A DNA stretch of 64,000 nt, taken from assembly GCA_964016885.1 (NCBI GenBank), contig OZ024753.1:35588001-35652000 (forward strand), written 5' to 3'. A program made the position numbers and the translations under genes. The notes below the pieces were generated by a model, which ran no database searches, was not told the origin of the DNA, and saw only the letters and a list, made by a program, of their open reading frames with translations. This DNA is from Eledone cirrhosa. Taxonomy: Eukaryota. How positions within the stretch are numbered: position 1 is the first letter of the stretch; each line of letters opens with the position of its first letter. This document shows, in pieces, positions 1,846 to 32,129 of this stretch.

Positions 1846-2430
1846 TTGCTACTGAAAGTCCTGAAATTGTGTTCCGTTTTGATCGTTTGGCAATCCCCCA
1901 TGTCAACCTAGTTGGTCAACCGGATCTGGTCAGCAGCGCGCACGATAACGTCATCCGACTAAATGGTCGTGGTCAGTATATTGATCTGGGAACTGATATC
2001 ACATGCGGTGGTGACTTGGAAAACTGTGTTGACGGCCATGTGATGCGGCTGCATGTGAAGACAAAGAAACTTCTTGACAACACGTACTTCCTTGACAGCT
2101 ACCCTACGACCATTTACTACAAAGATGGCCAACTCCATGCCGAAATGAGAACATCCACCCAGACATGGCATGTAAACACCACAGAGTTTGAAGCCGGAAC
2201 TTGGCAATATATTGAACTAGATTGGTACCCAGACGTTGGTCTGCGATTGTTCCTGAACCGCAGGGAGGTAGCACATGACACTATACCCCGCTTGCATGCC
2301 AGACAAGCTACTTCATCAAAAACCTTCATTGGTCGTTCTTTAAATGATGACGCTAACAAACATTACCTGAATGGTTTGGTGAAACAGATGGAACTCTGGC
2401 GGAGAAACCGAAATTATCATAGACCTAAAC
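1846..2430 (+). CDS. Exon: divergent LamG/concanavalin-A-like (pentraxin-like) domain
   Basis: tctag|TTGCT acceptor, AAAC|gtaagt donor; phase 1-1; [33 protein letters not shown] motifs. Confidence 0.8.
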
Positions 2431-3607
2431 GTAAGTATTTAATGCTTTCAATATTAACCCACCTAAAACTGTCACCTATAATACAAAGCCTCTTATTTTA
2501 AATTGTTTACCATATTTTCTGGCATTAAATATGCTCCCATCATGAATGCATTCCCATTTTAAGTCGCTAAATTTTGATGAAAAATAAAAGAAATATAAAA
2601 ATGAAACTTTCATCTGGGTGCATGGACACTACAAGGATGCTATGGATAAGACATGGTAAGTTTTACATTGAGTAAAGAGAAGGGGATATCGACAAAGAGA
2701 AAACATTTTTTTTTCTCTTTTCCGGTTTGTAAATATACTGACTTCAAATCCCTTTGAGATTAGCTTTGCTTTTTATCCTTACAGGGTCAATAAAATAAAG
2801 TACCAGTATTGCACTGGGGTCGATTTAATCGACTTCTCCTCCCCCAAAATTGTTGACCTTGTGCCTAAATCAGAAACTTTTATTATTATTTCTTAAAGAA
2901 TCAATATTGTATTCTATTTTTTTTTATTTTATTTACATTTGTTTATCTCCCTTGTTTCTCTTCATTTCAGCTGAACAAACTATAACTCTGAGTGGAAACA
3001 ATTATTATGGTTTCAATATATCTGTTAGAGAAGATACTAATCTAGTTTCTTCTCAGAAAGAACAATTCAAACTGAAGTTCACAAATGATAAATCTCAAAG
3101 AGAAGGTCTATTATGGTATGCCTATGATAGCTCACGCAGAATATTTCTCTACATCAAAGTGAGTATTTCCACCAGACATTCTTGAAAAGTATAAAACAGC
3201 ACTATGACTGCTTCACAATAGAAATTAAAGTCTTTACTTTAATACTGCAAATTTTCACACCAATCTGTCCATTTGTAAAGATACTATAAACATTTGAATT
3301 AACATATCCATTTTAAAATATTTTTTTGCTAAATTATTACAGGATGTTAAGAGTTAGTTACTAATATTTTGTAATCAATTCACTTTGGAACTGTTTATTG
3401 TAGGATGGTGATCTGTTCCTCAACATTATTGGACCTAATGGTAAGAAGTACAAATGGAAGATGAAGAAGCCAGCGAATGTTACATTTAATGATGGTAAAA
3501 TGCACCATGTCCTCTTACGGAGAGACGGACAGGAGGTGAGTCTGTTATTTTCTTATATATTAAGTTGTGTACTTAGCAACTGAAGTATAGAATAGGATAA
3601 AGAAATA

Positions 3608-3650
<43 letters not shown>

Positions 3651-6600
3651 AGAATTGAGAAGGCGTCACACCGGAGGGTGTTGAGGGAGATGCGCCAGAA
3701 GAGCCATTCCAGCTCATGAGGTTCATGCCTGCTGGTAGCCAACTCTGTGCCAATGGTGGTGAGTAGGGAAGTGGCCCTTGGGCCAAAGTCACCAAAGACC
3801 AATAAGTTTCAAAAAGCCGGTACAATGCAGTCGAAAAATATGAGAGAGGGTAATGACCCCGAAATATGTTGAAATATATTGGGTAAAACATTACTTTGTT
3901 TTGTTTGTTATACTTTACCCTTTATATATTTCTACTACATTGTAACACCCTTTTGGAACTTATCAGCTAAAATAACGGTTTTTTATCATACAACTTGGGG
4001 CTGTTTCAAGCAGTTTTTATCATACAACTTGGGGCTGTTTCAAGTAGTTTTTATCATACAACTTGGGGCTGTTTCAAGTAGTTTTTATCATACAACTTGG
4101 GGCTGTTTCAAGTAGTTTTTATCATACAACTTGGGGCTGTTTCAAGCAGTTTTTATCATACAACTTGGGGCTGTTTCAAGCAGTTTTTATCATACAACTT
4201 GGGGCTGTTTCAAGTAGTTTTTATCATACAACTTGGGGCTGTTTCAAGTAGTTTTTATCATACAACTTGGGGCTGTTTCAAGTAGTTTTTATCATACAAC
4301 TTGGGGCTGTTTCAAGTAGTTTTTATCATACAACTTGGGGCTGTTTCAAGCAGTTTTTATCATACAACTTGGGGCTGTTTCAAGTAGTTTTTATCATACA
4401 ACTTGGGGCTGTTTCAAGCAGTTTTTATCATACAACTTGGGGCTGTTTCAAGTAGTTTTTATCATACAACTTGGGGCTGTTTCAAGTAGTTTTTATCATA
4501 CAACTTGGGGCTGTTTCAAGTAGTTTTTATCATACAACTTGGGGCTGTTTCAAGTAGTTTTTATCATACAACTTGGGGCTGTTTCAAGCAGTTTTTATCA
4601 TACAACTTGGGGCTGTTTCAAGTAGTTTTTATCATACAACTTGGGGCTGTTTCAAGCAGTTTTTATCATACAACTTGGGGCTGTTTCAAGCAGTTTTTTT
4701 ATCATAGAAATTGGGGCTGTTTCAAGTAGTTTTTATCATACAACTTGGGGCTGTTTCAAGTAGTTTTTATCATACAACTTGGGGCTGTTTCAAGTAGTTT
4801 TTATCATACAACTTGGGGCTGTTTCAAGTAGTTTTTATCATACAACTTGGGGCTGTTTCAAGTAGTTTTTATCATACAACTTGGGGCTGTTTCAAGCAGT
4901 TTTTATCATACAACTTGGGGCTGTTTCAAGTAGTTTTTATCATACAACTTGGGGCTGTTTCAAGCAGTTTTTATCATACAACTTGGGGCTGTTTCAAGTA
5001 GTTTTTATCATACAACTTGGGGCTGTTTCAAGTAGTTTTTATCATACAACTTGGGGCTGTTTCAAGTAGTTTTTATCATACAACTTGGGGCTGTTTCAAG
5101 TAGTTTTTATCATACAACTTGGGGCTGTTTCAAGCAGTTTTTATCATACAACTTGGGGCTGTTTCAAGTAGTTTTTATCATACAACTTGGGGCTGTTTCA
5201 AGCAGTTTTTATCATACAACTTGGGGCTGTTTCAAGCAGTTTTTTTATCATAGAAATTGGGGCTGTTTCAAGTAGTTTTTATCATACAACTTGGGGCTGT
5301 TTCAAGTAGTTTTTATCATACAACTTGGGGCTGTTTCAAGCAGTTTTTATCATACAACTTGGGGCTGTTTCAAGCAGTTTTTTTATCATAGAAATTGGGG
5401 CTGTTTCAAGTAGTTTTTATCATACAACTTGGGGCTGTTTCAAGTAGTTTTTATCATACAACTTGGGGCTGTTTCAAGCAGTTTTTATCATACAACTTGG
5501 GGCTGTTTCAAGCAGTTTTTATCATACAACTTGGGGCTGTTTCAAGCAGTTTTGTGTAAAAATAGTTAATCTTTTGTGTCATCTTTTGCAGATTTACTGG
5601 AGTGTTGATGATATCTACAGACAAGCTTTTAGTCTCCCGATTGCAATCAAACTGTTACTACCAAAAGACTATGTCTTCATTGGCGGTACTCCTGATAATA
5701 GTGACTACACTTTCGGAGATGTTAACAAAAACTTCAAAGGAATCGCAGGCAATGTAAGCTTGTTTTGTTTTCATTTGTTTTTGTTGTTGGTTTTTTCTGT
5801 TGTTTCCTTTTTGAATTTATAATTGGAAAATTGGTGCATCATCAAATTGTACTTGCTTCGTTTCTCTCTAGCATTCACATGTCTTCTGCATTCACATTTC
5901 TTCTACATTCACATCTCTACAAACTTCACATCTCTACAGACTTCACATTTCTTCTACATTTACATCTCTACAGACTTCACTTCTCTTCTACATTCACATC
6001 TCTACAGACTTCACATTTCTTCTGCACTTACATCTCTACAGACTTCACATTTCTTCTGCATTTACTGCCCATGTTTCACTTTCATGCAACAACATGCTAT
6101 GCAGTTCATTAATTCGTTTGTCAAAAATCGTTTCAGTACAACCTGTGACCTTATCAATGACTGTACCCTCCTGCATCCCTTCACTTCTGCTCTCCTTTCA
6201 ATACCTCAGAAATTCCTTTTCACAAGTTCTACTATTTATATTTGTTATACTTTTAGCTTACACCTACTATTATTAGTGCCACTACCTCTACCAATACTAC
6301 GACTAATACCACCATCACCACAACCACCACCACCACTATTACTAATACCACTACCACCACTATTACTAATACCACTGCTACCACCACTATTACTAATACC
6401 ACCACCACTATTACTAATACCATTGCTACCACCACCACCACTATTACTAATACCACTGCTACCACCACCACCACTATTACTAATACCACTGCTACCACTA
6501 CTGCTAATACCACCATCACCACTACTACTAATACTGCCATTACTATTAATACCACCACCACCACCACTACTACTACTTTTAACAACACAACAGTCACTGA

Positions 6601-9600
6601 TTCAACCATTTTTTTATTATTTAATTTATTTTTTTTTTACAGTTGATTTACACATCTGGCCGATTTGACTTGGATATTCTAAACATGGCTCTACGTGTTA
6701 TGCCAGGAGTGACACCAGCACCAACCACAACGCCAATTGACTTCACTCCTTCACCGAAACCACCAAATACATTCTCTCCTATAACATTTATAACTCCTCA
6801 AAGCTTTGTAGAGACCGGAGCCTGGGATGTATCTAAAGGGGGGCAACTTAAGTTCAAATTCTATACTAATGATCCCGAAGGTTTAATATTCTACAACGGT
6901 GATCACCGCTATTATGTTGCTGTTGAAATATATGAAGGCAAACTCTACTTTGTCTATAATTTCGGTGACGGAAGCAAACGGGTCAGCTTTTTTGATAGCA
7001 TCGTCAATGACCGACAAGAACATGAGGCCACAATCACAATTAACCCCCAGAAGACATTCATGAAGGTGGAATTGGATGGCAACAGGAAAGCTGTTCGTCT
7101 TCAACCCAATGAAAGGCAGAACCGTCAGTTAGCAGGCTCCATGTATGTTGGATGGGTGCCAAATGCTGCTAGAATACCTTGGGAACTTTGGGCCACAAAG
7201 GGATTTCAAGGCTGCTTGTTGAATGTACAGGTGAGTTTTTTTTTTTTTATGCTTAACCTTCAACACACTGTGGACGACGAAATGCACTATATGAGTAATC
7301 TCCCCTTAAAAGATATTGCAGTGACAAGGGAAGCAACTCATAAAAACTACTAGCGTTCTAATGGTTAATCTGAGCGGGAGGAACAGTGCATCTATCTAAT
7401 CTAGTCAGCTGTGTTCATCCAATCCGATACCAGACCAGATTTGAGCCAAGCCAATTGATGTATATTTATATAATCTCTCTAAGATGATGTTACATTTACT
7501 ATCTGATGATTTCCTCTTGTTTTAGATGAATCTTGCCAAAGCCGACCTCCTCAAAAGCCTGAGAAGATTCCAGCTTGGCCGAACTATTGAAGCTCGTTGT
7601 TCCCCTATTGTACCCCAGTGTAATAGTAGAACATGTAAAAATGGTAACTGTATTGATTACTGGAATGGCTATAGCTGTGACTGCTCCAACGAACCATTTA
7701 CTGGCCGTAACTGTGATCAGGGTAATTTAACTTTCTTGTTTTGAATACATACCATTGACTTGAACAACATATCAATAACTAGCACTACATACCATTGACT
7801 TGAACAACATATCAATAACTAGCACTACATACCATTGACTTGAACATATCAATAACTAGCACTACATACCATTGACTTGAACAACATATCAATAACTAGC
7901 ACTACATACCATTGACTTGAACATATCAATAACTAGCACTACATACCATTGACTTGAACAACATATCAATAACTAGCACTACATACCATTGACTTGAACA
8001 ACATATCAATAACTAGCACTACATACCATTGACTTGAACAACATATCAATAACTAGCACTACATACCATTGACTTGAACAACATATCAATAACTAGCACT
8101 ACATACCATTGACTTGAACAACATATCAATAACTAGCACTACATACCATTGACTTGAACAACATATCAATAACTAGCACTACATACCATTGACTTGAACA
8201 ACATATCAATAACTAGCACTACATACCATTGACTTGAACAACATATCAATAACTAGCACTACATACCATTGACTTGAACATATCAATAACTAGCACTACA
8301 TACCATTGACTTGAACAACATATCAATAACTAGCACTACATACCATTGACTTGAACATATCAATAACTAGCACTACATACCATTGACTTGAACATATCAA
8401 TAACTAGCACTACATACCATTGACTTGAACATATCAATAACTAGCACTACATACCATTGACTTGAACATATCAATAACTAGCACTACATACCATTGACTT
8501 GAACATATCAATAACTAGCACTACATACCATTGACTTGAACATATCAATAACTAGCACTACATACCATTGACTTGAACAACATATCAATAACTAGCACTA
8601 CATACCATTGACTTGAACAACATATCAATAACTAGCACTACATACCATTGACTTGAACAACATATCAATAACTAGCACTACATACCATTGACTTGAACAT
8701 ATCAATAACTAGCACTACATACCATTGACTTGAACAACATATCAATAACTAGCACTACATACCATTGACTTGAACAACATATCAATAACTAGCACTACAT
8801 ACCATTGACTTGAACATATCAATAACTAGCACTACATACCATTGACTTGAACAACATATCAATAACTAGCACTACATACCATTGACTTGAACATATCAAT
8901 AACTAGCACTACATACCATTGACTTGAACAACATATCAATAACTAGCACTACATACCATTGACTTGAACAACATATCAATAACTAGCACTACATACCATT
9001 GACTTGAACAACATATCAATAACTAGCACTACATACCATTGACTTGAACAACATATCAATAACTAGCACTACATACCATTGACTTGAACATATCAATAAC
9101 TAGCACTACATACCATTGACTTGAACAACATATCAATAACTAGCACTACATACCATTGACTTGAACATATCAATAACTAGCACTACATACCATTGACTTG
9201 AACAACATATCAATAACTAGCACTACATACCATTGACTTGAACAACATATCAATAACTAGCACTACATACCATTGACTTGAACAACATATCAATAACTAG
9301 CACTACATACCATTGACTTGAACAACATATCAATAACTAGCACTACATACCATTGACTTGAACAACATATCAATAACTAGCACTACATACCATTGACTTG
9401 AACAACATATCAATAACTAGCACTACATACCATTGACTTGAACAACATATCAATAACTAGCACTACATACCATTGACTTGAACATATCAATAACTAGCAC
9501 TACATACCATTGACTTGAACAACATATCAATAACTAGCACTACATACCATTGACTTGAACAACATATCAATAACTAGCACTACATACCATTGACTTGAAC

Positions 9601-12600
9601 AACATATCAATAACTAGCACTACATACCATTGACTTGAACAACATATCAATAACTAGCACTACATACCATTGACTTGAACAACATATCAATAACTAGCAC
9701 TACATACCATTGACTTGAACAACATATCAATAACTAGCACTACATACCATTGACTTGAATATCTGTGTATTTAGGTTTTTCGAATAGATGCACCATATTG
9801 CAGGGAGATGTTGTATAGCAACTAAATATCTATATAGTATTCTAAATACAGTGTATATAAGTAAAAGTTTAAAGTCTGTCTCAAGCCCAAGGGCTTATCA
9901 GGCCAGTGATTGTCCTGGTTTCCATAGCGGGAAGTGACTGAGAGTATGACTTCCCCCTGGACAGGACGCCAGTCCATCGCAGGATTAAACCTCCAGCTAT
10001 TGCTGGTACTCATTTTTAGTTAAGTATACAGGAGCAACGTGAAATGAAGTGTTTTGCTCAAGAACGCAGCACACAACCCAGTCCAGGAATTATACCCATG
10101 ACATTATGATCGTAAGTTCAACACTTTTACCACGAAGCCATGCACCTCCATGTACATATGTAAGAGGTGACTAAAAAGGTTGGTGTTAGGAAGGACATCA
10201 ACTGTAAAGCACTGTCTCATAACTTCCTATCCACCCCATGCTAGCATGGAAAAGTGGACATAAAAGCAATGATGATGACTTGAACTACATATGGATTATA
10301 AAGGGGCCTGAGTTAGCAGTTAGTGTTGAACTCATGATTGTAAAGTTGCAAGTTCAATCTCTTGCCATTGGTCATACAATATCAACATTTTTCTATTTCA
10401 TTCATAAATCACTCACATACTTGTTTTACAATATCAAACTTTTGCTATTTCATTCATAAATCACTCACACATTTCTTTTACAATATCAAACTTTTGCTAC
10501 TTCATTCATTTAATCACTCACATACTTGTTTTACAGATGCTCCAGTTTCTGTATTTGATGGTAGTCATGGGAATAAGATTATCTTTGCTGATACTTTGAA
10601 ATCCAATAGAGATGACTTTTCTCTACGTTTTAATACTCACCTTAGAAACACAACATTGTTCCATACAACTGCTGAAAACTCTACAGATAGCATATCAGCC
10701 TTTCTTGACAGAGGAGTTTTGAAACTTGTTGTAAATATTAACGGCCAAAGAAAGGTAAGATGATGATGGTCTTTTTATTATTACTAGTACGGAAAAGGGT
10801 GATGTATTGGCAGTAATCAGTAGAGCATCAGACAACATGCTTTGTGGCATAGAGTTACGACTCTTTACATTCTGCGTTCAAATCCTCTCGAGGTTAGCTT
10901 TGCCTTTCATCCTTATAGGGTCGATAAAATAAAGTACCAGTAATGCATGGACAAGTTGAGAGAGAAACTGGGTATAAGAGGGATCAGTTGTAGTGTACGG
11001 GAGAGAAGACTGAGATGGTATGGACATGTGATGCGCATGGAGGATGACCGCTGGGTAAAGAAGGGCCAAGAAATGTCAGTAGAAGGAAGACGCAGTAGAG
11101 GAAGACCACGAAAAACATGGGCGGAGGTGGTGAGAGTGGACTTCAGATCGCTGAAGCTCATGGAGGAGATGACGAAGGACCATGACAAGTGGAGAGATGC
11201 TGTGCTGAATAGGACCCGTCCCACCCTTGCAAGCAGGGAAAAGCGGACGTAAAATGATGATGATGATGATGATGATGCAATGGGGTTGATTTAATCAAAT
11301 TTCTCCTTCTTTTCAAATTGCTGGCCTTGTGTCAAAAGTAGAAGCCATTATTACTATTACATTACAAGGGTGGTGGAGTGGCAGTATCGGTAGAGGGTCG
11401 AACGCCATGCTTTGCAGCAAAGAGTTACGGCCCTTTATGGTCTGAGTTCAAATCCCGCCGAGGTTAACTTTGCCTTTCATCCTTATGGGGTCGATAAAAT
11501 AAAGTACCAGTAATGTACTGGGTAATTGCTGGCCTTGTGCCAAAAAGTAGAAACAATTATTACTATTACATAAACCAGGGATTCTCAACCTTTTTTTCGC
11601 TGTGGACCACCAAAATAAGTAATTTTTTCCTGTGGTCCACCTAAACTTTTAAATCTTTTGTAATAGAACTGATACTTATAAGCATCAGTAGACGTTTTTT
11701 TTTCAATGAATTAGAAAATGCTATTATCATGTCGCAGTGCCTAAAAATCTACGCAAATAAACAGCTGAAGTCGTACTTATGCGAAGAATAAGAACAGTGC
11801 TTTAAGACAAATGCATGGATCAAAAGAGAATTTGCTATTGAAAATTTTCTGTGGACCACCTGAATTTTCCTGTGGACCACTAGTTGTCCACATGGACCAG
11901 GTTGATAACCCCTGACATAAACCACTGTCTTACAGACAAAATAACCAACATTAGGTTTCTTCATGAAACATTAATCCTTGTAGATTTAATGTAAAAAAAA
12001 CTGGAACACACTCATCATTGAAAGTGGTGGAGATCCATTCATTTTACTTTACTACTGTCATCACAATGTTAATCAATTTCTTAATTTCTAGATTCTTCGA
12101 GCTGGTTCCAACCTGAATAACAGAAAATGGCATACCATGCATTTAAAGAGGAGAGGAAACCGAGTAATACTTAAAGTTGATAATGAGAAAACAGCTGAGG
12201 GTAAATTCTTTTAAAGTATTGATTTTTTTTAATTATAAAATATTTTAATCTTTGTAGTTATCAAATTTTTGACCATCTTGTTGTTGTTTAGCAGTAGTAG
12301 TTCCGTAGAGACGTACAGTGGAATTTCGCTTCACAAACTTAATTCGTTCCCGAAGGTCATTCGTCATCAGAAATGTTTCATAAACTGAAACTATTTTTCC
12401 CATATGAAACGTTGAGAGAGAGAGAGAGAGAGAGACTGTGTGTGAAAGACAGATAGATATCATCATAGTAACTAAGTATGCAGCAAATCATGCTTTCCTG
12501 CCGATACTCCCAGATTGTTGCCAGCTTGCGTGTTCATTACTTGAGACACCATTCATCACCTGAGATGTTTTATGTTCAGAAAAAATGTTTGTGAGCCAAT

Positions 12601-14349: not shown

Positions 14350-14393
<44 letters not shown>

Positions 14394-15212: not shown

Positions 15213-15464
15213 CGTTTCTGAATTTGTTTAGCAAGATTCTTTATCTGAAATGGCAACATGACCCTCCCAAAGTATAACAATATATATATATACATGTACA
15301 TATATATATAATTCTTTTTATTTTTTTTCCTTAAAGCTTTATCCACTGTTTGTCAGAAAACAACTTGTGCCAATAATGGAAAATGCCATCAGGGACCAAC
15401 TGGTTATCTCTGTGACTGTGACCAAACTGGTTACTCTGGTACCAGATGTACTGAACGTAAGTAT

Positions 15465-19328: not shown

Positions 19329-19365
<37 letters not shown>

Positions 19366-22300
19366 ATATATATATATATATATAATGAGGGTTTATAACG
19401 ATATAGGACAATTTTGATCTCATTGCTTGCAATTTGCTCAACAAATCCATTTGGAGCACACACATAGGGTGAATTGAAAGGCAACATTCCCAGCCAGAAG
19501 CCTTTGCCATGACACGGAAGACAAGTATTGATTCAACATCTTAACTTATGAAAATGTTAAAGTACTCACAATTTGTGTCATTTGAAATGGCCAGTGTCTT
19601 TTTAGTTTATCACCTAAAGTTGTCAGAATATTAATATATATAAATCTGTCTGTGACTCTTTAAAATGTACATCTTAAAGAGTTACAGGCAGATATATGTA
19701 GCATATTATGTTTGTTATTAATTGTAGATAGGAAATATATTGTTTGTGTATGTATGTATGTACGTCCATACGTATGTATGTGTATATATTTTAAAGAGTT
19801 ACAAACAAATATATATAACTATACAAACACACATGGTGTATTATTATGTTTCATTAATGGTGGCTGAAGTGCATTTCTAATATATTATATGTTTACCTTT
19901 ATTTTTGTTTTCCTTTCTACAGAACCTATTGGTTACTACATGGGCAAAAACAACCTAGATGGCATAATAGTGTATACATATCCAGTGGATCAACGTATTG
20001 ACTCTTCTGAAGAGGAGTTAGCTTTTGGCTTCATGACACGTGACACGAATGGTGTACTGTCCCGCATCATTAGTAGTGTCAATGATGACTTTATAGAAAT
20101 ACGAATGGTTTGTTTTCATTTGTTTTTGTAACTGAAGTTTATATATAGCATGCACCACACCACTCACTCCCATACATCCCCCATCAGGTCAAGCTGAAGT
20201 GCACATCCAGTGAAGCACCCAGTCCACACTGTAAAGTGGTCATGTAGGTGTCATGACAAAAAGCACCCAGTCCACCCTGTAAAGTGGTCATGTAGGTGTC
20301 ACGACAAAAAGCACCCACTCCACACTGTAAAGTGGACGTTTAGGTGTCACGACAAAAAGCACCCAGTCGACACTGTAAAGTGGTCATGTAGGTGCCACGA
20401 CAAAAAGCACCCAGTCCACACTGTAAGTTAGGTTGGCACTAGGAAAGTCATCCAGCTATAGAAACCCAAGCCAAAATCAGTTTTGTTTGAGCAAGACATG
20501 GTCACCTGACCTAGCATTGCTCACAACAGAATAACTTGTCTAACCAATGCTAGCATGGAAAAGTGGATGTTAAACAGTGATGATGGTGATTTCAGTTATG
20601 AAACTGTGGCCAACCTCAGGGACCACCTTCAAAGGATTTAGTCAAACATAATGTATAACCACCCTTCCAGTACTTATTTCATTCATGTGACTGTGGGGCC
20701 AACTTCAGGGACCACCTTCAAGGGATTTAACGAATCATAATGTATCCCCACCTTGCGAATACTTTTTTTTTTCGTGTCTACACACATGCATGCTTGCTTA
20801 TGTTACAGCTAATATTAATAGTAACCGAATCACAATTTTGAATATTTTCCAGGTTGATGGTAAAATCCAAGCAATCTATGATACAGCTGGTAGTAAACAT
20901 ATTTTGAGCACCAGTGGTAACTACAGTGATGGCCAATACCATACTTTGTACTTCATGAGGAATTTTACAAACTCTAAACTGGTCATAGATAATTCTGAAG
21001 TTATTGCCAAAGAAAATAAAGGTCAGATAACATTTCTTGCTTCTTCTTCTTCTTCTTCTTCTTCTTCTTCTTCACTCATTCCTGAGAGGGTCATGGGGGC
21101 AGAGTCCTCAAACACTCCTTCCAGCAGGTCTTGTCAGTAGCAACCATCTCCAACTGATCTGGCTGGATCCCCAAGCATGACAAGCCAAATTCTTGGATGT
21201 TATCCGACCATCTTGCTCGGGGTCTCTTGCCAGTTGGTTTTGCCTGTAAAATCTGTCCAGCAATTCTTTCATGCTGCAAAAACTGGCGATGGGCCTGTGA
21301 CCTGTCCTGGGAGGCAGGGGATGGACTCACAAAGGTTGTGTATCTCTAGAGCCCGAAAGAGGGTCCAGAAAGGTACAAACCTTGACAATAGGAATTTGGA
21401 ATATCACAACATTTCTTGCTAATTTATTTAATTTTCACATCCTAGTACCTCATTCTGTTATGTGTATTTCATTTAAAATGAGTAGATTATATCCTTGAGT
21501 GCTATAGAACATCTGAGAGAGGGCACTTGCACTAGCGGTCAACGTTACTTTGGCTTATTGTGGGCTTTCTCAATGAGTGACCCTCAGAGGTATCCCCACT
21601 TTTGGGTAATTTCTTATGTTTTTATTTTAACCCTTTAGCATTTAAACCAGCCATATCCGGCCAGAATTCTCTCACCTCTTTCTGTTAAAACCGGCCATAA
21701 CTGGCCATTCATACTGATTTTAAGGTATTGTTCTCAAGATAAATAATATCAACATCTCATAAATTCGATATTATGTGAGATTACACCTTTATCACAAAAA
21801 TACAATAGTATATATAAAGTAATGTAAATGCTAAAGGGTTAAATGTTTATTTTTAGTCTTCTTTATAAAGCTTTCCCACACACAAAAACATCCACACTGT
21901 ACTATTCTATACCATCCTTATTGTCCTCTTCACCCTTTAGCATTTACTCTAATATTGTACTTTCATGGTAAAGGCCTTATCTCACATAATATGGAATCTA
22001 CGAGATTTTGAAGATGTTATTATTTATTTTATAAACAATACCTCAATGTCAGTATGAGTGGCCGGTTATGGCCGGTGTGAACAGAAAGAGGTGAGGAGAG
22101 AATTCTGGTCGGATGTGGCCGGTTTAATTGCTAAAGAGTTAATATAAGCTATGTGCCTAAATCAGAAAGCATTATTATTATTATTATTATTATTAAGGGC
22201 GGTGGATTGGCAGTATCGGTAGAGGGTCGGACGCCATGCTTTGACGCATAGAGTTACGGCCCTTTCCATTCTGAGTTCAAATCCCGCCGAGGTTAACTTT

Positions 22301-25300
22301 GCCTTTCATCCTTACGGGGTCGATAAAATAAAGTACCAGTAATGTACTGGGTAATTGATGGCCTTGTGCCAAAAGTAGAAACAATTATTATTATTGTAGT
22401 ATTATTGTAGTAGTAGTATTTTCATTATTATTTTTATTGCACATCATTACTGCTTTACCGAGCACAGCTCTGTGTGTCTTGAGTATGTGCAGTGTAGTTT
22501 TTGCTGATGTTTCTATTGTATTGATAGTACTTTTTGTATTGTGTGCAGTGCCTAGTAGTGCTATCTTTTGTATGCTGTATATATTTGTAAGTCCTGGGGT
22601 TTTGGTTATGTATTTGTCTGTGATTTTATCTTTCCTAGAGCACCTATTAATATAGGTATTGTTTCTGTTTACATTTTCCACGTTCGAGTTATCTCTATCT
22701 CTAGATCTTTATATTTGGAGAGTTTCTCTATTTCTTTGGTATTTATTATTATTATTATTATTACAGCTGCATTTATCTTGCTTTATGTTCATACGAGTTA
22801 TCACCAAGTCACAACCAGTGACCTCAAGAGACAACAAGGTCCGCCATGTTCAAGAAAGAACATACATACTCACACATGCATCTTTAGGTGTTTAGACTTG
22901 TGATGTACTTATATTGACAGAATCTTCCTTAGTATATGGGCAGTTACCATTAGTACTATCTTTTGTATTTCTCCTATACCGCTGGTTTCCTGGGATTTGC
23001 GATAAGTAAGCATTAGACCCCTTAGGTATCATTCCTAGAGCGCCTACAACCACTGGTATTGTTTTAGTTCTCAATTTCCACATTTTTCCAATTTCTATCT
23101 CCAGGTCCTTATACTTGCTCAATTTTTCAAATGTTTTTATAGATACATTCTTGTCTATTGGAACGGACATATCAATTAGCAGGCATACCCTCTTTTTAAA
23201 GTCCTTCAATATTATATCAGGTCTATTTGCATCTATTTTTTGGTCTGTTTGGATGCTAAAGTTCCACAAGATTGAGATGTGATCTTTTTCAAGTATGGGA
23301 GGTGGTTGATGCTCCCACCAATTCTTTTGATGGGGCAGGTCAAAATGCTTACACATTATCCAATGTATGTATTGTGCAGCTCTGTCATGCCTGTTTAGGT
23401 ATTCGGTTGGAGCTATAGGACTGCACATTGAAATTATATGATCAATGGTCTCTAGTTGTTTTTTACATACACGGCATAATGGGCTGCATCCATTTTTTAT
23501 TATGTTGGCTTGGTAATTTTTTGTTGGCAGACACTGATCTTGTGCTGATATAATCAGTCCTTCAGTCTCCGATTTCAGTCCAGAGGATGCCAACCACTGA
23601 TGGGTTAAAGTTTTGTCAACATCAGGATTGTTAGCTCGTTCTGGGTATTTTCCATACAGAGGCTTTTCTTGCCATTTCTTAGCCAGTTTCTGTAGCAGTT
23701 CTTTCTTTGCAGTTACTTTTACCTGCTTTGCTTTTTCTGTGTTTTCCATTTCAGCAGTAAATGGGACTTCTGAAATGTGTAGTCCATTACTGTATCTTTG
23801 TGCATCTTTTGTAATGGAGTATGATCTTTTGATGCTTTCGTGTTTCAAAACGAGTTTGATCATCCATCATCATCATCATCATCAGGTTTAGCGTCCGTGT
23901 TCCACGCTTGCATGGGTTTGGACGGGGGTTTTCCCACTTGAGGCAAGAGTGGTTGTCTTGCTCGCATAGGACTGTCTAGCGGGTTTTCTACAGTTGGATG
24001 CCCTTCCTAACACCAACCACATTTACAGTGTGGGGCTGGGAGGTTTTTACCGTGTTGCCTACACGGCCACATTACAGCGTGGACTGTCTGGCGGGTTTTC
24101 TACAGCTGAATGCCCTTCCTAACACCAACCACATTTACAGTGTGGGGCTGGGAGGTTTTTACCGTGTTGCCTACACGGCCACATTTACAGCGTGGACTGT
24201 GTGTTTTTTTATCGTGACACCTACACGATCTCATTTGTTTCGGCCTGGATGTTGTGGGACCAACATAACTTTACATTGAAAGGGGCGGTGTGGATGGGGT
24301 GGAGGTGGTGGGACGGGGGGTGTTTTGATAGAGATGCCTACTGACTGTAGTAGGTTTTTACTTTGTATTTAGGTATTATTATTATTATTATTCCAGATAT
24401 CTACCCAGCTGGTTATTTTGACAAATTGACCACCATAACTGTGGGAGCTGCTAAGAAGATATCTGCTAGTGAATATGAAGAACCATTCTATGGCATTATA
24501 GGAGGTGAGTTTTAGTTTAACCCTATATATAATACCTCACCACCTGAAACTGACCCTGGGTTTGGGATACAAAACTGATAATTTTAAAATGTTTCTGTTT
24601 TGTTTTGTTTTGTTTTATATGATTTCTTATATTTCTATATTTTGTCTTTGTTGGTCAGGTTACAATTTCAATAGATTATTCATGTTTAAAGATACCAATA
24701 AACTAACATTATCTGGTGATGCCAAACCTGCAGATATACCATATTCTCTTGAAGGGTAAGTAGAAATATTTCTCACAGATATTCTGTTCCGTTGTGAAAA
24801 GGGTTTGGTGCTGCCAACAGGTGTCATTAATGGTGCTGCCAACATGGTGTCATCCTGTCTCACACTGTAAATGTGGTTGATGTTAGGAAAGGGATCTTGC
24901 TGTAAAAACCCCAGCCAAATTTACAGTCCCGTCAGAGGTATGATGTGTCTGACCCATGCAAACATGGATTAATGGATGTTAAACAGTGCTGATGGATGTT
25001 AAACAGTGCTGATGGATGTTAAACAGTGCTGATGATGATTCAGAAATCAGTGGTCTAACATTGTGTTGTGTGTTTAATTCCTGTGTTTTTGTTGAAATTC
25101 ACTGTCTGTGTATTTCAATTAACCCTTTAACATTTAAACCGGTCATATCCGGCCAGAATTCTCTCACCATTTTCTGTCCAAACCGGCCATAACTGGTTCC
25201 TCATACTAACTTTAAGTTATTGGTCTCAAAATAAATACTATCAAAATCTCATAGACTCGATATTATGTGAGATATTTATGTAAAGCCTTTTCTCTGAAAA

Positions 25301-26266
25301 TACAATAGTAAATATAGAGTAATGTGAATGCTAAAGGGTTCATTTGGAAAGTTTTTATAAAATAACTGACTTTTTCATTAACTCTTTTGTGACTGAATCT
25401 AAACAGTGGAAACTCAGGTCACAAACAAATCAGTTCATGAGCAATTTTGAGAAGGTTTAGTAATATAACTAACTGGTCATGGTCCCAGCATTCCCAATTT
25501 TACAAGGGTCGGCCGAAAAGTTCATAGGCTGATACTCTCATGGAATGACCAAAATAGGTTTATTTTTCAACAGTCTTTGGAAAGTAACAATGCTGTTATT
25601 AATAAGAAGAGTTGAAATTAATGCATGCAAGATTTCACAGCTCTAGCATCAATACCATTAAATGTAAAATAGTCATGTGACTATATTATAAATATTTGTT
25701 GTTTTGTTTTATATATTTTAATTATATTCTCTTTTGTATTGCAGGGGAACTGATATTGTTCGTCCCCCTGAGAAACCAGAACCCACAACAACACCTGGTG
25801 GTGGTGGTGGTGGTGGTGGTGGTGGTGGAGGAGGTGGTGGAGGAGGTGGTGGTGGTGGTGGTGGTGATGGTGGCGGCGTAGTTGTGCCAGATGTCACTGT
25901 AGCCCCTCCCATTAATTCCGGAATTTTAATTGCTGGCGGCAAAGGTGGTGGTATGGGTGTGGCAATTGATGTGCCTGTTTACTCCCCCCTTGTTGCCGAA
26001 CCTGTCAAAGCAGGACCAGCTGTTGCTTTCAGTGGTGCTGGTGGGGGTGCTAGTATTGCAGAAGGTATCGGTAGAGCCGACCGAGCTGGGGCAGCTGCAG
26101 GAACGTTCTTGGGTCTACTTGTTCTCGGAGCCGGTTTTGCTTTTGGTCTTATAAAATTACTCCAGGGTGGCGGATTTGGTGCGGGCTCATCGACAACGGA
26201 TGGGGGTGGAATTTCAATATCGTCCCCATCTGCTGGGCCTGTTATACAGCAGTCGTCTGGTGGTGG

Positions 26267-26297
<31 letters not shown>

Positions 26298-29260
26298 GGT
26301 ATTGGGGAAGCAAAGGCCGCCATAGCCAATGGTACAGTTGGAAGCGGTGCTGGTGGAGGATCAAGCGCTACATCTGGCTTTACTTACATTGGTAGCAGTG
26401 GAGGGTCGAGTGCTCAAAGCGGTGGAGCAGCTGCTGGCTCCAGTGACTCGGCTACATTGCGAGTCACTGGAACATTCTCAAACAAAGGGACTGTGATTGG
26501 GACCCCTCAACAAGGCCGGGCAGCTACATCATATTCATCAGCTTCTTACTCTGCCAAACAAAGCGCCGTTAATCTGAACACAGACAGCAGCAGCAACCTG
26601 ACAGCAGGGGCAGGAGGAGGCAGTTCTTCAAACTTTGCCTATGTAAACAATACTGCTGGTTACGGTGGTGGTGCTGGTTACGGTGGTGGTGCTGGTTACG
26701 GTGGTGGTAGTGCTGGTGGTGGTGGTGGTGGTGGTGGTGGTGGTGGTAGTGTTGGTAACTACAACTATCAATCTAGTGTTCACAGCAGCAACATGGGTCA
26801 TTCAACAGGAGGTAGTTTCTCACAACAGCAGCAGTACAACAATGCAATGTATTCCACGCTGGGGGCATCAAGTGGTGGTGGTGGCAGTGGTGCATTGCAC
26901 GACAATGTCTTCGCTCAGAACACGCTCGATGCTGCAGGTTATGGTTCCGGAAGTAACACTCTCTCATCATCATACCAGTACCAAATGAAGTCATATTCTG
27001 CATCGAACTTTGAATCTCATGCATCTGGTTACAATACAGGTGGTGGGAGTATGGCATCAATTGGTGGCCCGATGGTTATTGCAGATGGTGTCAGAGTTGA
27101 TTGCTGTCTAATGACATCCGACGGCAAAAGTGTCATCACTGGTTCTACAACAGGCGCCCCACAAATTTGGAACATGCAGGTAAATAAACAATAAGAAAAT
27201 CTTATCTTCTATATATAAATTTGAGCGACTTCTGATTGTGAGGATGTAGGTCTCGTGATCATAAGGTTGTGGGGTTCAATTCTCAGACCAGATGAAGCAT
27301 TGAATTTTGATTGTCTAAATTTTGATTGTCTAAATTTTTATTGTCTAAATTTTTATTGTCTAAATTTTTATTGTCTAAATTTTTATTGTCTAAATTTTTA
27401 TTGTCTAAATTTTTATTGTCTAAATTTTTATTGTCTAAATTTTGATTGTCTAAATTTTGATTGTCTAAATTTTGATTGTCTAAATTTCAGACTGGTGAAC
27501 TTATCCGAAGTATGGATGGCAATATTGCTGGTGCATCAAACCTTCATCTTGCTTGCAATGGCCAACTGCTTGTGGGTTCTGCACATACAGATAACTTGGA
27601 TGTCAATGAATTTTCAACCAAAAAAGGAGTGACCAATAGGAATTTGCAGGTCAGTTTATTTTCTTACTATTTATCATCATCATCATCACATGGAGGCACA
27701 TGGCTTAGTGGTTAGAGCATTGGCCTTGCAATCGAAAGGTTGTGAGTTCAATTCTCAGACCGGGTGATGTGTTGTTTCCTTGAGCAAGGCACTTTATTTC
27801 ACATTGCTCCAGTTTACTCAGCTGTAGAAATGAGATGATAGGGACTGGGGTCCCTATCATTCCACTGCAAAGTGGTCGTGTAGGTGCCACGGCAAAAAAA
27901 CACCCAGCACTCACTGTAAATGAGGTTGGTGTTAGGAAGGGCATCCAGCTGTAGAAATCAAGCCAGAATCAGTTCCCGTCCCACCCTTGCAAGCAGGGAA
28001 AAGCGGACGTAAAATGAAATGATGATGATGATGATGATCACCCATTTTCCATATATATATATATATATATAATATTAAGGATACTATTTATGGTTATGTA
28101 TATACTAAAACTTTTTATAGTTATGTATATTTTAAACCCTAAACAGTGAAGGTCAGTAATTTATTACTACCTTATTACCAGTAAGATAAATAGCTCAATG
28201 TAATAAGATCAGTTGTTCTACAGAGCAGTTATATAGAATTCACAAGAATCAAAGCTATGTTCAAAGCATTTATTCACTTACAATTGTTTCATCCAAACCT
28301 AGGCTTGGAGTCTTAGGAGCATTTTTCAATGTTTGTACACATGATTCACCTCCTTTCCAACGCAAGAGACATACAGATACATATGTATATATTGATGTAC
28401 AGTGGAGTGACATATATTATATTATATTTCTGTATAGCAATTCAAAATCAAAATCCTCATTAAAACAAAATATATATATATAGTGGTAGAACAATGGAAG
28501 GTAATATCCGTAGTGGTAGAGCACTCAGTCCAAGGGACGAGTTAGGTAGAAGTGGTTACACAACAGTTAGTTCACCATACCGAGAACAATTGTTTCAGCT
28601 TAGCGGATCCTCAGCTCTTTGGATTTTATTATTACTATATATATATATAATGGAGGCATATGGCTTAGTGGTTAGAGCATTGGCCTTGCAATCGAAAGGT
28701 TGTGAGTTCAATTCTCAGACCGGGTGATGTGTTGTTTCCTTGAGCAAGACACTTTATTTCACATTGCTCCAGTTTACTCAGCTGTAGAAATGAGATGATA
28801 GGGACTGGGGTCCATATCATTCCACTGCAAAGTGGTCGTGGAGGTGCCACGGCAAAAAAGCACCCAGCACTCACTGTAAATGAGGTTGGTGTTAGGAAGG
28901 GCATCCAGCTGTAGAAATCAAGCCAGAATCGGTTCCCGTCCCACCCTTGCAAGCAGGGAAAAGCGGACGTAAAATGATGATGATATATATATATGTATGT
29001 AAAAGGTAAACAGAAATAACAACACAATCGGTACAGTGTATGGAAGGAATATATTAGTTTAACGCTTAAAATAGCAGGAAGAGGGTCTTAACGTTTCAGA
29101 ATAAAGAATGAGTAATTAGAAAGATTGAAGGGCTGAGCAGGGAAGGGCATCTAACAGTAGAAATCTAGTGAAAATAGTCCTATATGAGCAAGACACAGTC
29201 ACCTGACCAAACATGCCCCTAATGGGACAACCATGTAAAATGGATGTTAAACGATGATGA

Positions 29261-29302
<42 letters not shown>

Positions 29303-30602
29303 TCATCATCATCATCGTTTAATATATATATATATGTACCCCAGCATGGCCTCAGCCGGATGGCTGGAACAGATAAAAGAGTAATATAATCATAACACAA
29401 GTAATACTTCTTTACAGAGTATACTGGGAGCATTTTATTGTGATATTAACGTTACTGATTGCTTTACAGAGTGTACTGGGGGTATTTTATTATAGCAGGA
29501 ACAATAGTCGAGTTTTTTTGTATGTCCTCAGTAGAACCAAATTAATATTTATTTGTATTTTTTTGTTTATCTTTTATTTTTTTATATTCATCTCCATATT
29601 TCGCTTTTTATTTTTTTTTATCTCACAATCCAGATTTGGGATTTCAAGACTGGAAGTCCGTTGGTTATGGCTGATCAAGAATATTGTTCTGCATTGCAAG
29701 TATTGTCCGATGGTGACAAAGTAGCACTGGGAAGAACAGATAAATATGGTAACAGCACCAGCATCATTGTGTGGGATCTGTTGGGAAACCAACCCATCAA
29801 GGAGATGCGCTATGAAGCCAGCGTGGGTAACAGTGATTACATCAGCTTCCTGTGCTTATCACAAAACAACAGATACGCAGTCGCTGGTTTTCACAACACA
29901 TTTGACAACAGCGCTGAATTTGTGGTCTTTGATATGACACTAACCAGCTATAATGTTGTTGAACCAAGTATCTTGAAAATGGATGCCAATCCTGAATGCA
30001 CAGCAGTCTTGCCACATGATGAAGCTGTTACTGGCTTAAGGAATGGGGACCTTGTCATTTGGAACCTTCGTAATGGTCAGCCGAGTCGGCAGCTGGTCTC
30101 CTCTTCTGGAATGCATGCACACACATCGGAGGTGTCTGCTGTAGCTTTGTCGGAGGATTCCAGTGTTTTGGTGTCAGCTTCAGCTGATGGAACTGTCAAA
30201 GTTTGGGATATGAGGAATGAGGTTTTGGGAAGTACCTTAATTGGTCATACACGAGAGGTAGGTTTTGCTTTTTCAAAATAATTTTGTATATGTATATGTA
30301 TTGTCATGTATATCTGTTGTTGTTGTTTTTTTTAAAATAATTGTTTATTGTCATATCATTGTGAAAGCGCATGGCTTAGTGGTTAGAACATTGGGCTTGC
30401 AATTGAAAGGTTGTGAGTTCAATTCTCGGACCAGGTGATGTGTTGTTTCCTTGAGCAAGACACTTTATTTCATGTTGCTCCAGTTTACTCAGGTGTAGAA
30501 ATGAGATGATAGGACTGGGATCCCTATCATTAAATCACCCAAGACACCTCCAACCAGATATACCTTGGAGGAGGCCTGTTAAACCTGCATAGGTGTGAGC
30601 TG

Positions 30603-30678
<76 letters not shown>

Positions 30679-32129
30679 TGCCATCCTGAGCAAATCAGTT
30701 CATGAAAAATTTTTCCAAGCATAAAACATCTCAGGTTATGAACAGTGTCTCGAGTAATGAACAAGCAATCCAGCATCAACAGTTGGCAATAAGCTGAGAG
30801 TAAGGCTGTAAAGCATCACTTGATGTGTAGTTAGTTACTATGATGATATCTATCAGTCTTTCACACACAGTCTCTGTCTCTCTCTCTCTCTCTCTCACTC
30901 TCTCAACATTTCGTATGGGAAAAATAGTTTCAGTTTACGAACATTTCGGGTGACAAATAGCCTTCAGGAATGAATTAAGATCATGAACAGAGGTGTAAAA
31001 GGAAGGTAGGGGATGGTGAAAAAACTATGGCAAAACAGCGGCTGGCATTCCTTTTGCTACGCTGTGTGTAAGTGAATGTGTATGTGTGTTTGTGTAAATA
31101 TTTGCATGTATGTGTTTGTGTGAATGTGTATTTTTGTAAGTGTGTCTGTGTTTGCACATGTATATTTATATACACATACGCTTCAGGCATATATATATGT
31201 GTATATTTATATGCACATGCGAGGCCATAGTATCTAGAATAAGGACGGGCTGGAAGAAGTTTAGGGAGCTGCTTCCTCTGTTAACAAAGAAGGGTTTCTC
31301 CCTGCGTATGAAAGGTCGGTTATATGATGCCTGTGTGAGATGCGCGATGCTGCATGGTAGTGAGACATGGGCAGCAACTGTAGAGGATATGCGACGGCTG
31401 GAGGGAAATGAAGCAAGCATGCTCCGTTGGATGTGCAATGTCAATGTGCGTGAATGACCAAGCATGGATGAGTTGAGAGAGAAATTGTGTATAAGAGGGA
31501 TAAGTTGTAGTGTATGGGAGAGAAGACTGCAATGGTATAGACATGTGATGCACATGGAGGATGACTGCTGGGTAAAAGAAGTGCCAAGAAATGCCAGTAG
31601 AAGGAAGACGCAGTAGAGGAAGACCACAAAAAACATGGCGGAGGTGGTGAGAGCAGACCTCAGATTACTGAAGCTCATGGAGGAGATGACGAAGGACTGT
31701 GACAAGTGGAGAGATACTGTGCTGAATAGGACCCATCCCACCCTTGCAAATAGGGAAAAGCGGACATAAAATGATGATGATAAAAATGATTCAATGTGCT
31801 GAAAAAATCTTAGTTAATAAAAAAAAAAATTTTTTTTCTAACTCTCCATTTTTCTCTCTCTTTTGTCTTTATAGGTTTCCTGTGTTACTGTTTCTTCCGA
31901 CAACGAGATTGTTGTGTCTGGTTCTCAAGACGGTACAATACGTCTTTGGCGTACACAGACAGGCTCACAGATCTGTGCATTCAACACGAACATGGACGTG
32001 TTCTCTGTGACAATGAGCAAAGACAACAGCACAATAGTGGCATTGGGTGATAAATATGGTGCTAGGAAATTAATTATGTTGCAAGTGGTGCGTTCCAAAG
32101 TGCGTAAACACGTGTTGGCCTCAAAATAA
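1846..32129 (+). CDS. Spliced gene (5'-incomplete, 18 exons in window): alpha-neurexin-like LamG/EGF single-pass membrane protein with cytoplasmic low-complexity region and C-terminal WD40 repeats
   Basis: 18 exons bounded by AG/GT with compatible phases sum to 6065 nt (2 nt + 2021 codons including TAA). LamG motifs (PITF.TP.SF, W/MH.V...R, LYLGG, GF.GC), two EGF domains, a hydrophobic TM and WD40 motifs ([23 protein letters not shown]). Confidence 0.9.
2971..3158 (+). CDS. Exon: start of LNS2-like LamG domain
   Basis: ttcag| acceptor, AAA|gtgagt donor; [12 protein letters not shown]...FKLKFT...EGLLWY. Confidence 0.85.
3404..3535 (+). CDS. Exon: LNS2-like, DGDLFLNII...[17 protein letters not shown]
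   Basis: ttgtag| acceptor, GAG|gtgagt donor; phase 0-0; not in the ORF track; LamG NDG.WH.V...R motif. Confidence 0.88.
3650..3830 (-). mobile_element. 3' fragment of a CRE-clade (RLE) non-LTR retrotransposon
   Basis: [12 protein letters not shown]...EWLFWRISL...DAFSIL, homologous to the end of the 43.7-45.4 kb element; abuts (TA)n. Confidence 0.7.
3978..5552. repeat. 34-bp minisatellite (~46 copies), intronic
   Basis: Unit gtttttatcatacaacttggggctgtttcaag(c/t)a. Confidence 0.97.
5592..5753 (+). CDS. Exon: LNS2-like, IYWSVDD...YVFIGG...NFKG
   Basis: ttgcag| acceptor, AAT|gtaagc donor; phase 0-0. Confidence 0.88.
5870..6580. repeat. Degenerate short tandem repeats (cacatctctacagacttc..., then ACC/ACT triplets)
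   Basis: Directly visible periodicity. Confidence 0.8.
6643..7230 (+). CDS. Exon: end of LNS2, Pro/Thr linker, LNS3-like domain
   Basis: tacag| acceptor, CAG|gtgagt donor; [12 protein letters not shown]...[16 protein letters not shown]...GFQGCL. Confidence 0.92.
7526..7721 (+). CDS. Exon: end of LNS3 plus EGF-like domain
   Basis: tttag| acceptor, G|gtaatt donor; [32 protein letters not shown]. Confidence 0.92.
7745..9758. repeat. 40/37-bp minisatellite (~50 copies), intronic
   Basis: Unit acataccattgacttgaac(aac)atatcaataactagcact. Confidence 0.97.
9870..10152 (-). mobile_element. tRNA-derived SINE (related copies at ~36410-36970 with triplicated tail, ~45780-45920 and ~47130-47345)
   Basis: tRNA-like head, cttgagcaa..cactt core, ctgcgatggactggcgtcctgtccagggg segment; several copies. 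Confidence 0.65.
10537..10754 (+). CDS. Exon: start of LNS4-like domain
   Basis: ttacag| acceptor, AAG|gtaaga donor; VFDGS...DDFSLRFNT. Confidence 0.88.
10942..11277 (+). mobile_element. 5'-truncated RTE-type LINE nested in a SINE (10795-11355)
   Basis: [12 protein letters not shown]...GRPRKTW; (GAT)n tail; same family as 55120-56605. Confidence 0.85.
11367..11567 (+). mobile_element. tRNA-derived SINE with gcctttcatcc...gtcgataaaataaagtacca central domain (Meta-domain-like); other copies at ~2750, 10795, 22197, 34815, 37540(-), 37742, 42800(-), 53460, 60308
   Basis: A-box-like tggcagtatcggta, B-box-like gagttcaaatcc; many dispersed copies. Confidence 0.75.
11576..11914. mobile_element. hAT (Charlie-like) MITE
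   Basis: TIR cagggattctcaacc...ggttgataacccctg; perfect 8-bp TSD acataaac on both sides. Confidence 0.88.
12092..12200 (+). CDS. Exon: LNS4-like, [32 protein letters not shown]
   Basis: ttctag| acceptor, G|gtaaat donor; not in the ORF track; phase 0-1. Confidence 0.88.
12316..12642 (+). mobile_element. Tc1/mariner-superfamily (Tigger-like) MITE; antisense partial copy at ~30685-30990
   Basis: TA|cagtggaa...ttccattg|TA termini; second copy elsewhere in window. Confidence 0.65.
13266..14000 (+). CDS. Exon: end of LNS4 and complete LNS5-like domain
   Basis: ttcag| acceptor, G|gtatgt donor; [31 protein letters not shown]. Confidence 0.92.
14107..14345 (+). mobile_element. Fold-back mini-element in (TA)n (Penelope-like end)
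   Basis: 74-bp arms with a 4-nt loop, then a tail containing tactc...ttgagtgct. Confidence 0.6.
15337..15456 (+). CDS. Exon: EGF-like domain ([33 protein letters not shown])
   Basis: ttaaag| acceptor, C|gtaagt donor; 120 nt, phase 1-1; six-Cys EGF spacing. Confidence 0.9.
15701..15794. mobile_element. Short Tc1-like MITE
   Basis: TA|cagggagacccaaaa...tttggggacaccctg|TA. Confidence 0.6.
16114..16940 (+). mobile_element. 3' end of a second RTE-type LINE family with long 3' UTR
   Basis: [12 protein letters not shown]...GRPRKTW, internal repeats and (GAT)n tail; UTR copy at 23862-24375(-), related copy at 40130-40630(-). Confidence 0.8.
17122..17565 (+). mobile_element. Fold-back element with degenerate hammerhead (Penelope-like); non-palindromic antisense relative at ~34300-34525
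   Basis: ~170-bp arms; CTGATGAT-stem-GAAA in right arm; tail tactc...tcgagtgct; flanked by (TA)n. Confidence 0.7.
17699..18050 (+). mobile_element. tRNA-derived SINE with RTE 3' tail
   Basis: tggcttagtgg A-box, gagttcaattc B-box; 3' end matches the RTE LINE end. Confidence 0.82.
19923..20107 (+). CDS. Exon: start of LNS6-like domain
   Basis: tacag| acceptor, ATG|gtttgt donor; GIIVYTYP...EELAFGFMT. Confidence 0.88.
20210..20590 (+). repeat. 45-bp tandem repeat (5 copies) within an RTE-3'UTR-derived repeat
   Basis: aaaagcacccagtccacactgtaaagtggtcatgtaggtgtcacgac units. Confidence 0.8.
20853..21021 (+). CDS. Exon: LNS6-like, [22 protein letters not shown]
   Basis: tccag| acceptor, G|gtcaga donor; phase 0-1. 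Confidence 0.88.
22430..23863 (-). mobile_element. Two tandem 3' fragments of R4/Dong-clade non-LTR retrotransposons (CCHC knuckle + restriction-like endonuclease)
   Basis: AQDQ..CRVC...[29 protein letters not shown]; each fragment ends at a (TAA)n-type tract. Confidence 0.87.
23862..24375 (-). mobile_element. RTE 3'UTR copy, near-identical inverted partner of 16430-16935
   Basis: Reverse-complement match; the spurious ORF translations are nearly identical. Confidence 0.85.
24397..24504 (+). CDS. Exon: LNS6-like, ITVG...EPFYGIIG
   Basis: ttccag| acceptor, G|gtgagt donor; not in the ORF track; phase 1-1. Confidence 0.85.
24659..24755 (+). CDS. Exon: end of LNS6-like domain
   Basis: gtcag| acceptor, GG|gtaagt donor; phase 1-2 exactly bridges the flanking exons. 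Confidence 0.8.
25745..27179 (+). CDS. Exon: Pro/Thr + poly-Gly stalk, TM helix, Gly/Ser-rich cytoplasmic region, first WD40 blade
   Basis: ttgcag| acceptor, CAG|gtaaat donor; one open frame; [26 protein letters not shown] (~26085-26162); ends [20 protein letters not shown]. Confidence 0.9.
27303..27488. repeat. 15-bp tandem repeat (~12 copies) abutting a splice acceptor
   Basis: aatttt(g/t)attgtcta units. Confidence 0.95.
27491..27649 (+). CDS. Exon: WD40 repeat
   Basis: ttcag| acceptor, CAG|gtcagt donor; TGELIRSM...NGQLLVGS. Confidence 0.87.
27691..28037 (+). mobile_element. tRNA-derived SINE with RTE tail (near-identical copy at 28650-28984; partial at 30362-30530)
   Basis: Same sequence as the 17699 copy. 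Confidence 0.85.
29634..30257 (+). CDS. Exon: WD40 repeats
   Basis: tccag| acceptor, GAG|gtaggt donor; IWD, VWD, AH...[14 protein letters not shown]. Confidence 0.92.
31218..31782 (+). mobile_element. 5'-truncated, decayed RTE LINE
   Basis: [16 protein letters not shown]...LHGSETW; same family as 55120-56605. Confidence 0.88.
31875..32129 (+). CDS. Terminal coding exon: WD40 repeats and stop
   Basis: tatag| acceptor; [25 protein letters not shown]...KHVLASK-TAA. Confidence 0.9.
   Translation, partial: VSCVTVSSDNEIVVSGSQDGTIRLWRTQTGSQICAFNTNMDVFSVTMSKDNSTIVALGDKYGARKLIMLQVVRSKVRKHVLASK

Follow-up and report, generated by a model that had tools for sequence, protein, structure and literature searches.

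A probable PHRED-1 family receptor in Eledone cirrhosa, with a neurexin-like ectodomain and an intracellular WD40 propeller

The closest described relative of the gene studied here is PHRED-1 of the planarian Schmidtea mediterranea (dd_Smed_v6_4789_0_1; Adler and Sánchez Alvarado, bioRxiv 10.1101/131789; Dev Biol 2017, 427:165). It is a protein of 2,536 amino acids (aa) with LamG, EGF, transmembrane (TM) and WD40 parts, considered a distinct family by its authors. SMART counts six LamG, nine EGF and three WD40 domains in it, rapid amplification of cDNA ends (RACE) supports a transcript of 8 kb, and a band above 270 kDa was detected. The planarian gene is expressed in muscle, and RNA interference (RNAi) leaves the fibres thickened and disordered. 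Its homologues were reported as lophotrochozoan only, including Schistosoma, Lottia, Octopus and Capitella; Supplemental Figure 2 of the same work (10.1101/131789) lists 14 of them. Two further papers cite PHRED-1 for muscle phenotypes (PMC6453901, PMC8533874). Here we analyse a window of 64,000 nucleotides from Eledone cirrhosa (G000:C13:35588001-35652000 in a genome of 3.0 Gb), whose plus strand carries a gene that we read, with a probability of about 0.8, as the mollusc orthologue of that planarian gene: an adhesion receptor derived from neurexin, with a predicted single span, likely at the muscle-cell surface.

Only the 3' portion of this gene falls within the window, as 18 exons between positions 1846 and 32129, all on the plus strand. 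All acceptors are AG, each of the 17 introns has a GT donor and the phases agree; boundaries were read from the sequence, the exons were spliced by script, and the splicing rests on splice signals, phase and homologues. The product has 2,020 codons and a single, terminal stop after KHVLASK, an end without PDZ-binding motif. An earlier note on this DNA, made from the sequence alone, had described this phase-consistent frame and this C-terminus, and had put the TM segment and the first WD40 blade within one open exon, as the splice model and the hydrophobicity confirm. Its two EGF domains and its alpha-neurexin order from LNS2 to LNS6 hold as well, the latter by alignment to homologues and to neurexin-1alpha. 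Its count of six LamG domains does not: five are neurexin-type LNS domains, and the one in exon 1 is a concanavalin A (ConA)-like Laminin_G_3 domain.

This first exon (1846-2430, phase 1-1) matches PF13385 at E 3.6e-5, under the curated cut-off, and an Atlas feature at 0.98. It holds the sixth ConA-like domain of the gene, is not a neurexin LNS, and finds its best match (34-37% identity) in the final ConA domain of the long homologues from gastropods. The LNS2-equivalent occupies exons 2-4 (2971-3158, 3404-3535 and 5592-5753); its own Pfam match, in exon 3, is weak, and it was placed by alignment to homologues and neurexin-1alpha. Clear Laminin_G_2 matches (E 6e-25 to 8e-6) fall in exons 5, 8, 9 and 12. 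Exon 5 (6643-7230) is the LNS3-equivalent (E 1e-20), exon 6 (7526-7721) the EGF2-equivalent (E 1.5e-5), and exons 7-9 (10537-10754, 12092-12200 and 13266-14000) encode the LNS4- and LNS5-equivalents (E 8e-6 and 6e-25). They are followed by the EGF3-equivalent in exon 10 (15337-15456, E 1.7e-6) and the LNS6-equivalent in exons 11-14 (19923-20107, 20853-21021, 24397-24504 and 24659-24755).

Exon 15 (25745-27179, phase 2-0) encodes a Pro/Gly-rich stalk, the predicted TM helix (about 26091-26159), a Gly/Ser-rich linker of about 307 aa and the first WD40 blade (27087-27179). The helix is the top hydrophobic 19-mer of the whole model (aa 1318-1336, mean Kyte-Doolittle value 2.2, next best 1.48). It is Gly/Ala-rich and marginal, with a Hessa-scale sum of about 0, and is conserved in all 13 family sequences examined; by eye, the family TM aligns to that of neurexin without gaps. 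Short motifs of the linker are kept in most molluscs. The remaining propeller and the stop lie in exons 16-18 (27491-27649, 29634-30257 and 31875-32129), with Pfam WD40 matches in exons 17 and 18 (E 2e-11 and 2e-8). Directly 3' of the stop, two AATAAA hexamers in an AT-rich context (32163-32182) are candidate poly(A) signals. A secreted form made by simple skipping of exon 15 was considered and rejected, since phases 2 and 0 are incompatible.

The conservation of the propeller is some twofold that of the ectodomain: it is 54-67% identical in all nine mollusc and annelid homologues compared, against 28-32% for LNS2-6. Modelled with AlphaFold2 on an alignment of five sequences, the homologue P0002, which is WD40 only, is all-beta with 31 strands (predicted local distance difference test 78, predicted template modelling score 0.78), and its strand list suggests about eight blades. 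No donor of the propeller was found: sequence matches in the PDB reach only the two canonical repeats, and Atlas matches are generic bacterial WD40 clusters. An origin from NWD2, at E 0.003 only, was rejected.

Of 28 candidates scored in the genome for exon 17, one is a match. Among the best 120 of 299 proteins matched by it (E <= 1e-10), eight are close, with 53-71% identity over the full length, and the others are generic WD40 proteins. In seven of the eight, a single chain carries both LamG and WD40 (Sinanodonta, Candidula, Mya, Aplysia, Tegillarca and two Logan proteins); the remaining one has WD40 alone. With the half of the propeller that is specific to the family as query, there are 15 matches among 783 candidates, the named ones all molluscs; LamG and WD40 share a chain in 14, and one partial sequence stops within the propeller. 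A profile search against 1.84 billion representatives added the annelid Owenia with the same architecture; of the 150 matches listed, three are single full-length and 147 are multi-repeat WD40 matches, so that distant relatives were crowded out. LNS-EGF-TM-WD40 is thereby a single protein in bivalves, gastropods and one annelid. Named matches are all molluscs or Owenia, a range to be read together with this crowding and the insensitivity of word-seeded searches. The full-length homologues align collinearly with the window protein at E = 0, and the architecture is therefore not a product of chance. Two LamG+WD40 homologues lie on Logan contigs of 5.7 and 5.0 kb, which are probably transcripts, being hardly longer than their open reading frames. 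Databases label the homologues 'neurexin-1(-like)' or uncharacterised; on mollusc proteins of this family, including Aplysia XP_012941838, the name 'neurexin-1' is misleading. Some lineages show further changes: in Mizuhopecten, a single scaffold carries two genes of the family (P0129, P0133), one with an additional LNS2-LNS5 block, Sinanodonta has two near-identical loci (P0001, P0122), and LNS5 is multiplied in Owenia (P0207).

The window protein combines the four elements of PHRED-1, with a LamG and EGF ectodomain, one predicted TM and an intracellular WD40 part, and shares with it the strongly conserved C-terminal region; its named matches, in searches of limited sensitivity, all come from lophotrochozoans, the range published for the family. 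We regard its membership of the family as very probable. The domain counts differ: against the six LamG, nine EGF and three WD40 domains given for the planarian protein, the window encodes five LNS and two EGF domains, the gene has six ConA-like domains, and its propeller would have some eight blades by strand count, a comparison made with the published description only. The earlier note had not known the architecture to be characterised, and would by its own terms be refuted by an already described family of this kind. Such a family exists: LamG+EGF+TM+WD40 is described as PHRED-1, and one of the homologues named is from Octopus (10.1101/131789). The claim of novelty fails on this 2017 description; the gene is real, its architecture and family are already known, and it opens no new class. 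We found no further description of the family, in literature searches that were not aimed at the ConA insertion or the blade number. The position of the ConA array, the constraint on the propeller, the LNS6 residues and the separate neurexin go beyond the text of 10.1101/131789, with which its Supplemental Figure 2 may overlap.

The ectodomain is of neurexin type. Among solved structures, the bivalve orthologue P0001 is closest to neurexin-1alpha (3qcw residues 233-1231, E 1e-132), and the family shares with alpha-neurexins, including that of this genome, the order LNS2-LNS3-EGF2-LNS4-LNS5-EGF3-LNS6-stalk-TM and a similar TM. It differs from them in a ConA-like array at the EGF1-LNS2 position, in a cytoplasmic part of about 680 aa with WD40 repeats, and in lacking the KE(Y/W)YV PDZ-binding end. 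In a tree of LNS3-LNS6 with 21 rows, the window protein belongs to a clade of 13 mollusc rows (support 98/99), and neurexins, including this genome's own, form a separate clade (98/93). The tree holds one row per genus or Logan cluster and leaves out isoforms, three further scallops, partial Candidula, Potamilus and tuatara rows and most NRXN3 matches; the Mactra and Plakobranchus rows are labelled as family, yet their models end before or inside the propeller. CASPR and Neurexin IV also have LNS and EGF domains and a single TM, and lie further away in this tree. Their N-terminal F5/8 discoidin domain (PF00754) is absent from the best 25 Pfam matches of the window exons and of the homologues, and was seen only on P0168 and P0169. 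The canonical neurexin of the genome lies at G000:C1 ~302.89-303.16 Mb, with exons for LNS1, LNS3, LNS5 and a TM-tail ending KEWYV (L032, L025, L023 and L030); the vertebrate NRXN3 tail ends KEYYV. A Gly/Met-rich insert is present in the tail of this neurexin. The earlier note's view of a neurexin paralogue whose own WD40 domain takes the place of the PDZ-binding tail is upheld by the separate clade, for which it had proposed an LNS phylogeny, and by the separate KEWYV neurexin.

On the same strand, 5-54 kb ahead of the window, six further exons encode another five ConA-like domains. Their donors are of phase 1 in six of six cases and their acceptors in five of six, the filter not having selected the sixth. 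They match long homologues of Bulinus, Lymnaea and Nucella, with the order largely kept. The array is preceded by LNS1 and EGF1, behind a signal peptide, in Mactra P0139 and Owenia P0207. In relatives, the ConA-like domains, six in this gene, are thus intercalated between EGF1 and LNS2, and the backbone is otherwise that of a complete alpha-neurexin. No LNS1-EGF1 was found within 200 kb upstream of the window. The best match to the Mactra and Owenia LNS1-EGF1 is an exon on a 39-kb unplaced contig (G000:C1429:30735 to ~30010, minus strand, L031; 42% identity, E 2.5e-44), with the first exon of the canonical neurexin a lesser match (35%). It opens with a hydrophobic stretch, carries a phase-1 donor and is likely the first coding exon, with signal peptide, LNS1 and EGF1. 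Its contig may fill a 200-N gap at G000:C13:35519781-35519980, 68 kb upstream of the window. This placement is only inferred, because comparing the contig ends with the gap flanks gave repeats and no unique overlap. With this exon, the whole protein is estimated at about 3,300 aa. Further upstream on C13, exons of a small membrane protein (~35.506-35.511 Mb, plus strand), presumably one resembling TMEM41, and an open reading frame (~35.499 Mb, minus strand) bound the possible start of the gene.

Two alternatives would divide this gene. According to one, the WD40 repeats belong to a gene of their own, or reflect an artefact of assembly or prediction, as the WD40-only protein in a few annotations might suggest. 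We give it almost no credence and consider it largely refuted: a single open exon encodes both the TM and the first blade, RACE lengthened the planarian transcript and a large protein was seen (10.1101/131789), and the same chain recurs in molluscs and an annelid, so that the earlier note was right to hold the fusion genuine. According to the other, exon 1 and the upstream ConA-like exons belong to a separate gene for a secreted protein, and the receptor proper begins with LNS2 behind a signal peptide of its own. Short homologues, which may be isoforms, paralogues or lineage losses, do exist with a hydrophobic N-terminus or signal peptide immediately before LNS2 (P0001, P0003, P0007, P0127 and P0137), splicing was modelled here from sequence and not from RNA, and the candidate first exon lies on a contig that could not be anchored. 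The 540-nt intron after exon 1 also contains a consensus phase-1 donor, though the peptide preceding it is not hydrophobic. Set against these points, exon 1 ends in a GTAAGT donor of the correct phase 540 nt ahead of exon 2, and the ConA array is joined to LNS2 in five gene models from five genera (Bulinus, Lymnaea, Nucella, Mactra and Owenia). In addition, the antigen peptide used in 10.1101/131789 spans, as judged by eye and not computed, a ConA-like end and an LNS2-like start. A separate ConA gene is therefore unlikely in our view.

A third alternative accepts the whole gene and makes it a second synaptic neurexin, that is, a presynaptic organiser binding neuroligin through LNS6 and signalling through the propeller. 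The likeness of the ectodomain to neurexin-1alpha and the 'neurexin-1' names of the orthologues speak for it. So do the Ca2+ side-chain positions of LNS6, where all 11 family rows have Asp/Glu at the D137-equivalent and Asp/Asn at the N238-equivalent. At the neuroligin interface, however, the equivalents of N103, P106, R109 and R232, the salt-bridge residues among them, are kept in none of the 11 rows (residue list from PMC2570956, mapped onto NRXN3 by spacing), whereas bee neurexin retains this interface, according to the same paper. The genome already has its canonical, KEWYV-tailed neurexin; planarian phred-1 is expressed in muscle, and neuron numbers in the pharynx stay the same after its RNAi (10.1101/131789). 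A synaptic role of this kind thus seems improbable.

As a PHRED-1 orthologue, the protein would have type I topology. Its ectodomain would bind extracellular ligands, likely in a Ca2+-dependent manner and likely other than neuroligin; glycosylated dystroglycan, a ligand of LNS domains, is a candidate only. The Gly/Ser-rich linker may hold the propeller off the membrane, and the propeller itself would recruit cytoskeletal or signalling partners, a task that falls to PDZ scaffolds in the case of neurexin. Carried over from the planarian RNAi results, its role would be to set the thickness and arrangement of muscle fibres, and a role in muscle adhesion in this animal is rather probable. That the propeller is so strongly constrained suggests that lophotrochozoan muscle contains a conserved intracellular partner for it, and the locus supplies a well-defined exon model for a family on which little work exists.

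Several points weigh against this interpretation. The muscle role is carried across phyla from planarians. The WD40 part is split off or missing in some annotations (Potamilus P0138 and P0124, Mizuhopecten OWF43129, Mactra P0139), the predicted TM is more Gly-rich and divergent here than in relatives (25-39% identity), and Owenia joins the mollusc clade at 80/71 only. The planarian protein has nine EGF domains, the window two, or three with the inferred upstream exon. Finally, the search for this architecture across Lophotrochozoa, proposed in the earlier note, recovered the shared chain from molluscs and Owenia but no flatworm sequence; orthology with planarian PHRED-1 consequently rests on architecture, single copy and the statement in 10.1101/131789.

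A more specific scenario is tentative. PHRED-1 could be an alpha-neurexin remodelled at both ends, with phase-1 ConA-like exons inserted at the EGF1-LNS2 hinge and the PDZ-binding tail exchanged for a constrained, roughly eight-bladed propeller. A long form and an LNS2-start short form from a second promoter might echo alpha- and beta-neurexin. Having lost the neuroligin face and kept the Ca2+ site, the protein might act at muscle junctions of lophotrochozoans, as a receptor whose ligand is a glycan or part of the matrix.

Other features of the window touch the introns of the gene or lie beyond it. Long tandem repeats with units of ~35 nt and ~16 nt occupy intronic positions ~3990-5550, 7750-9760 and 27300-27490, the last reaching the acceptor of exon 16. 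In the intron preceding exon 2, a short frame opens with ATG and runs to a consensus phase-1 donor (2631-2701); it might serve as another first exon, although the encoded peptide lacks hydrophobicity. Another intron carries a zf-RVT fragment of a non-long-terminal-repeat (non-LTR) retroelement (22895-23866, minus strand), and 3' of the gene lies a stop-interrupted non-LTR piece, RVT_1 with a PHD finger (55123-56292, plus strand). A 574-nt inverted repeat (41668-42241 and 54172-54745), 98% complementary across a distance of 11.9 kb, may mark the ends of a DNA transposon or represent two copies of one element. Elsewhere in the genome, a syndecan TM and tail exon ends KEFYA (G000:C1:207221047-207221214, minus strand, L029), and an open frame of 1,569 codons holds several LamG domains (G000:C4:222387960-222388475, minus strand, L024).

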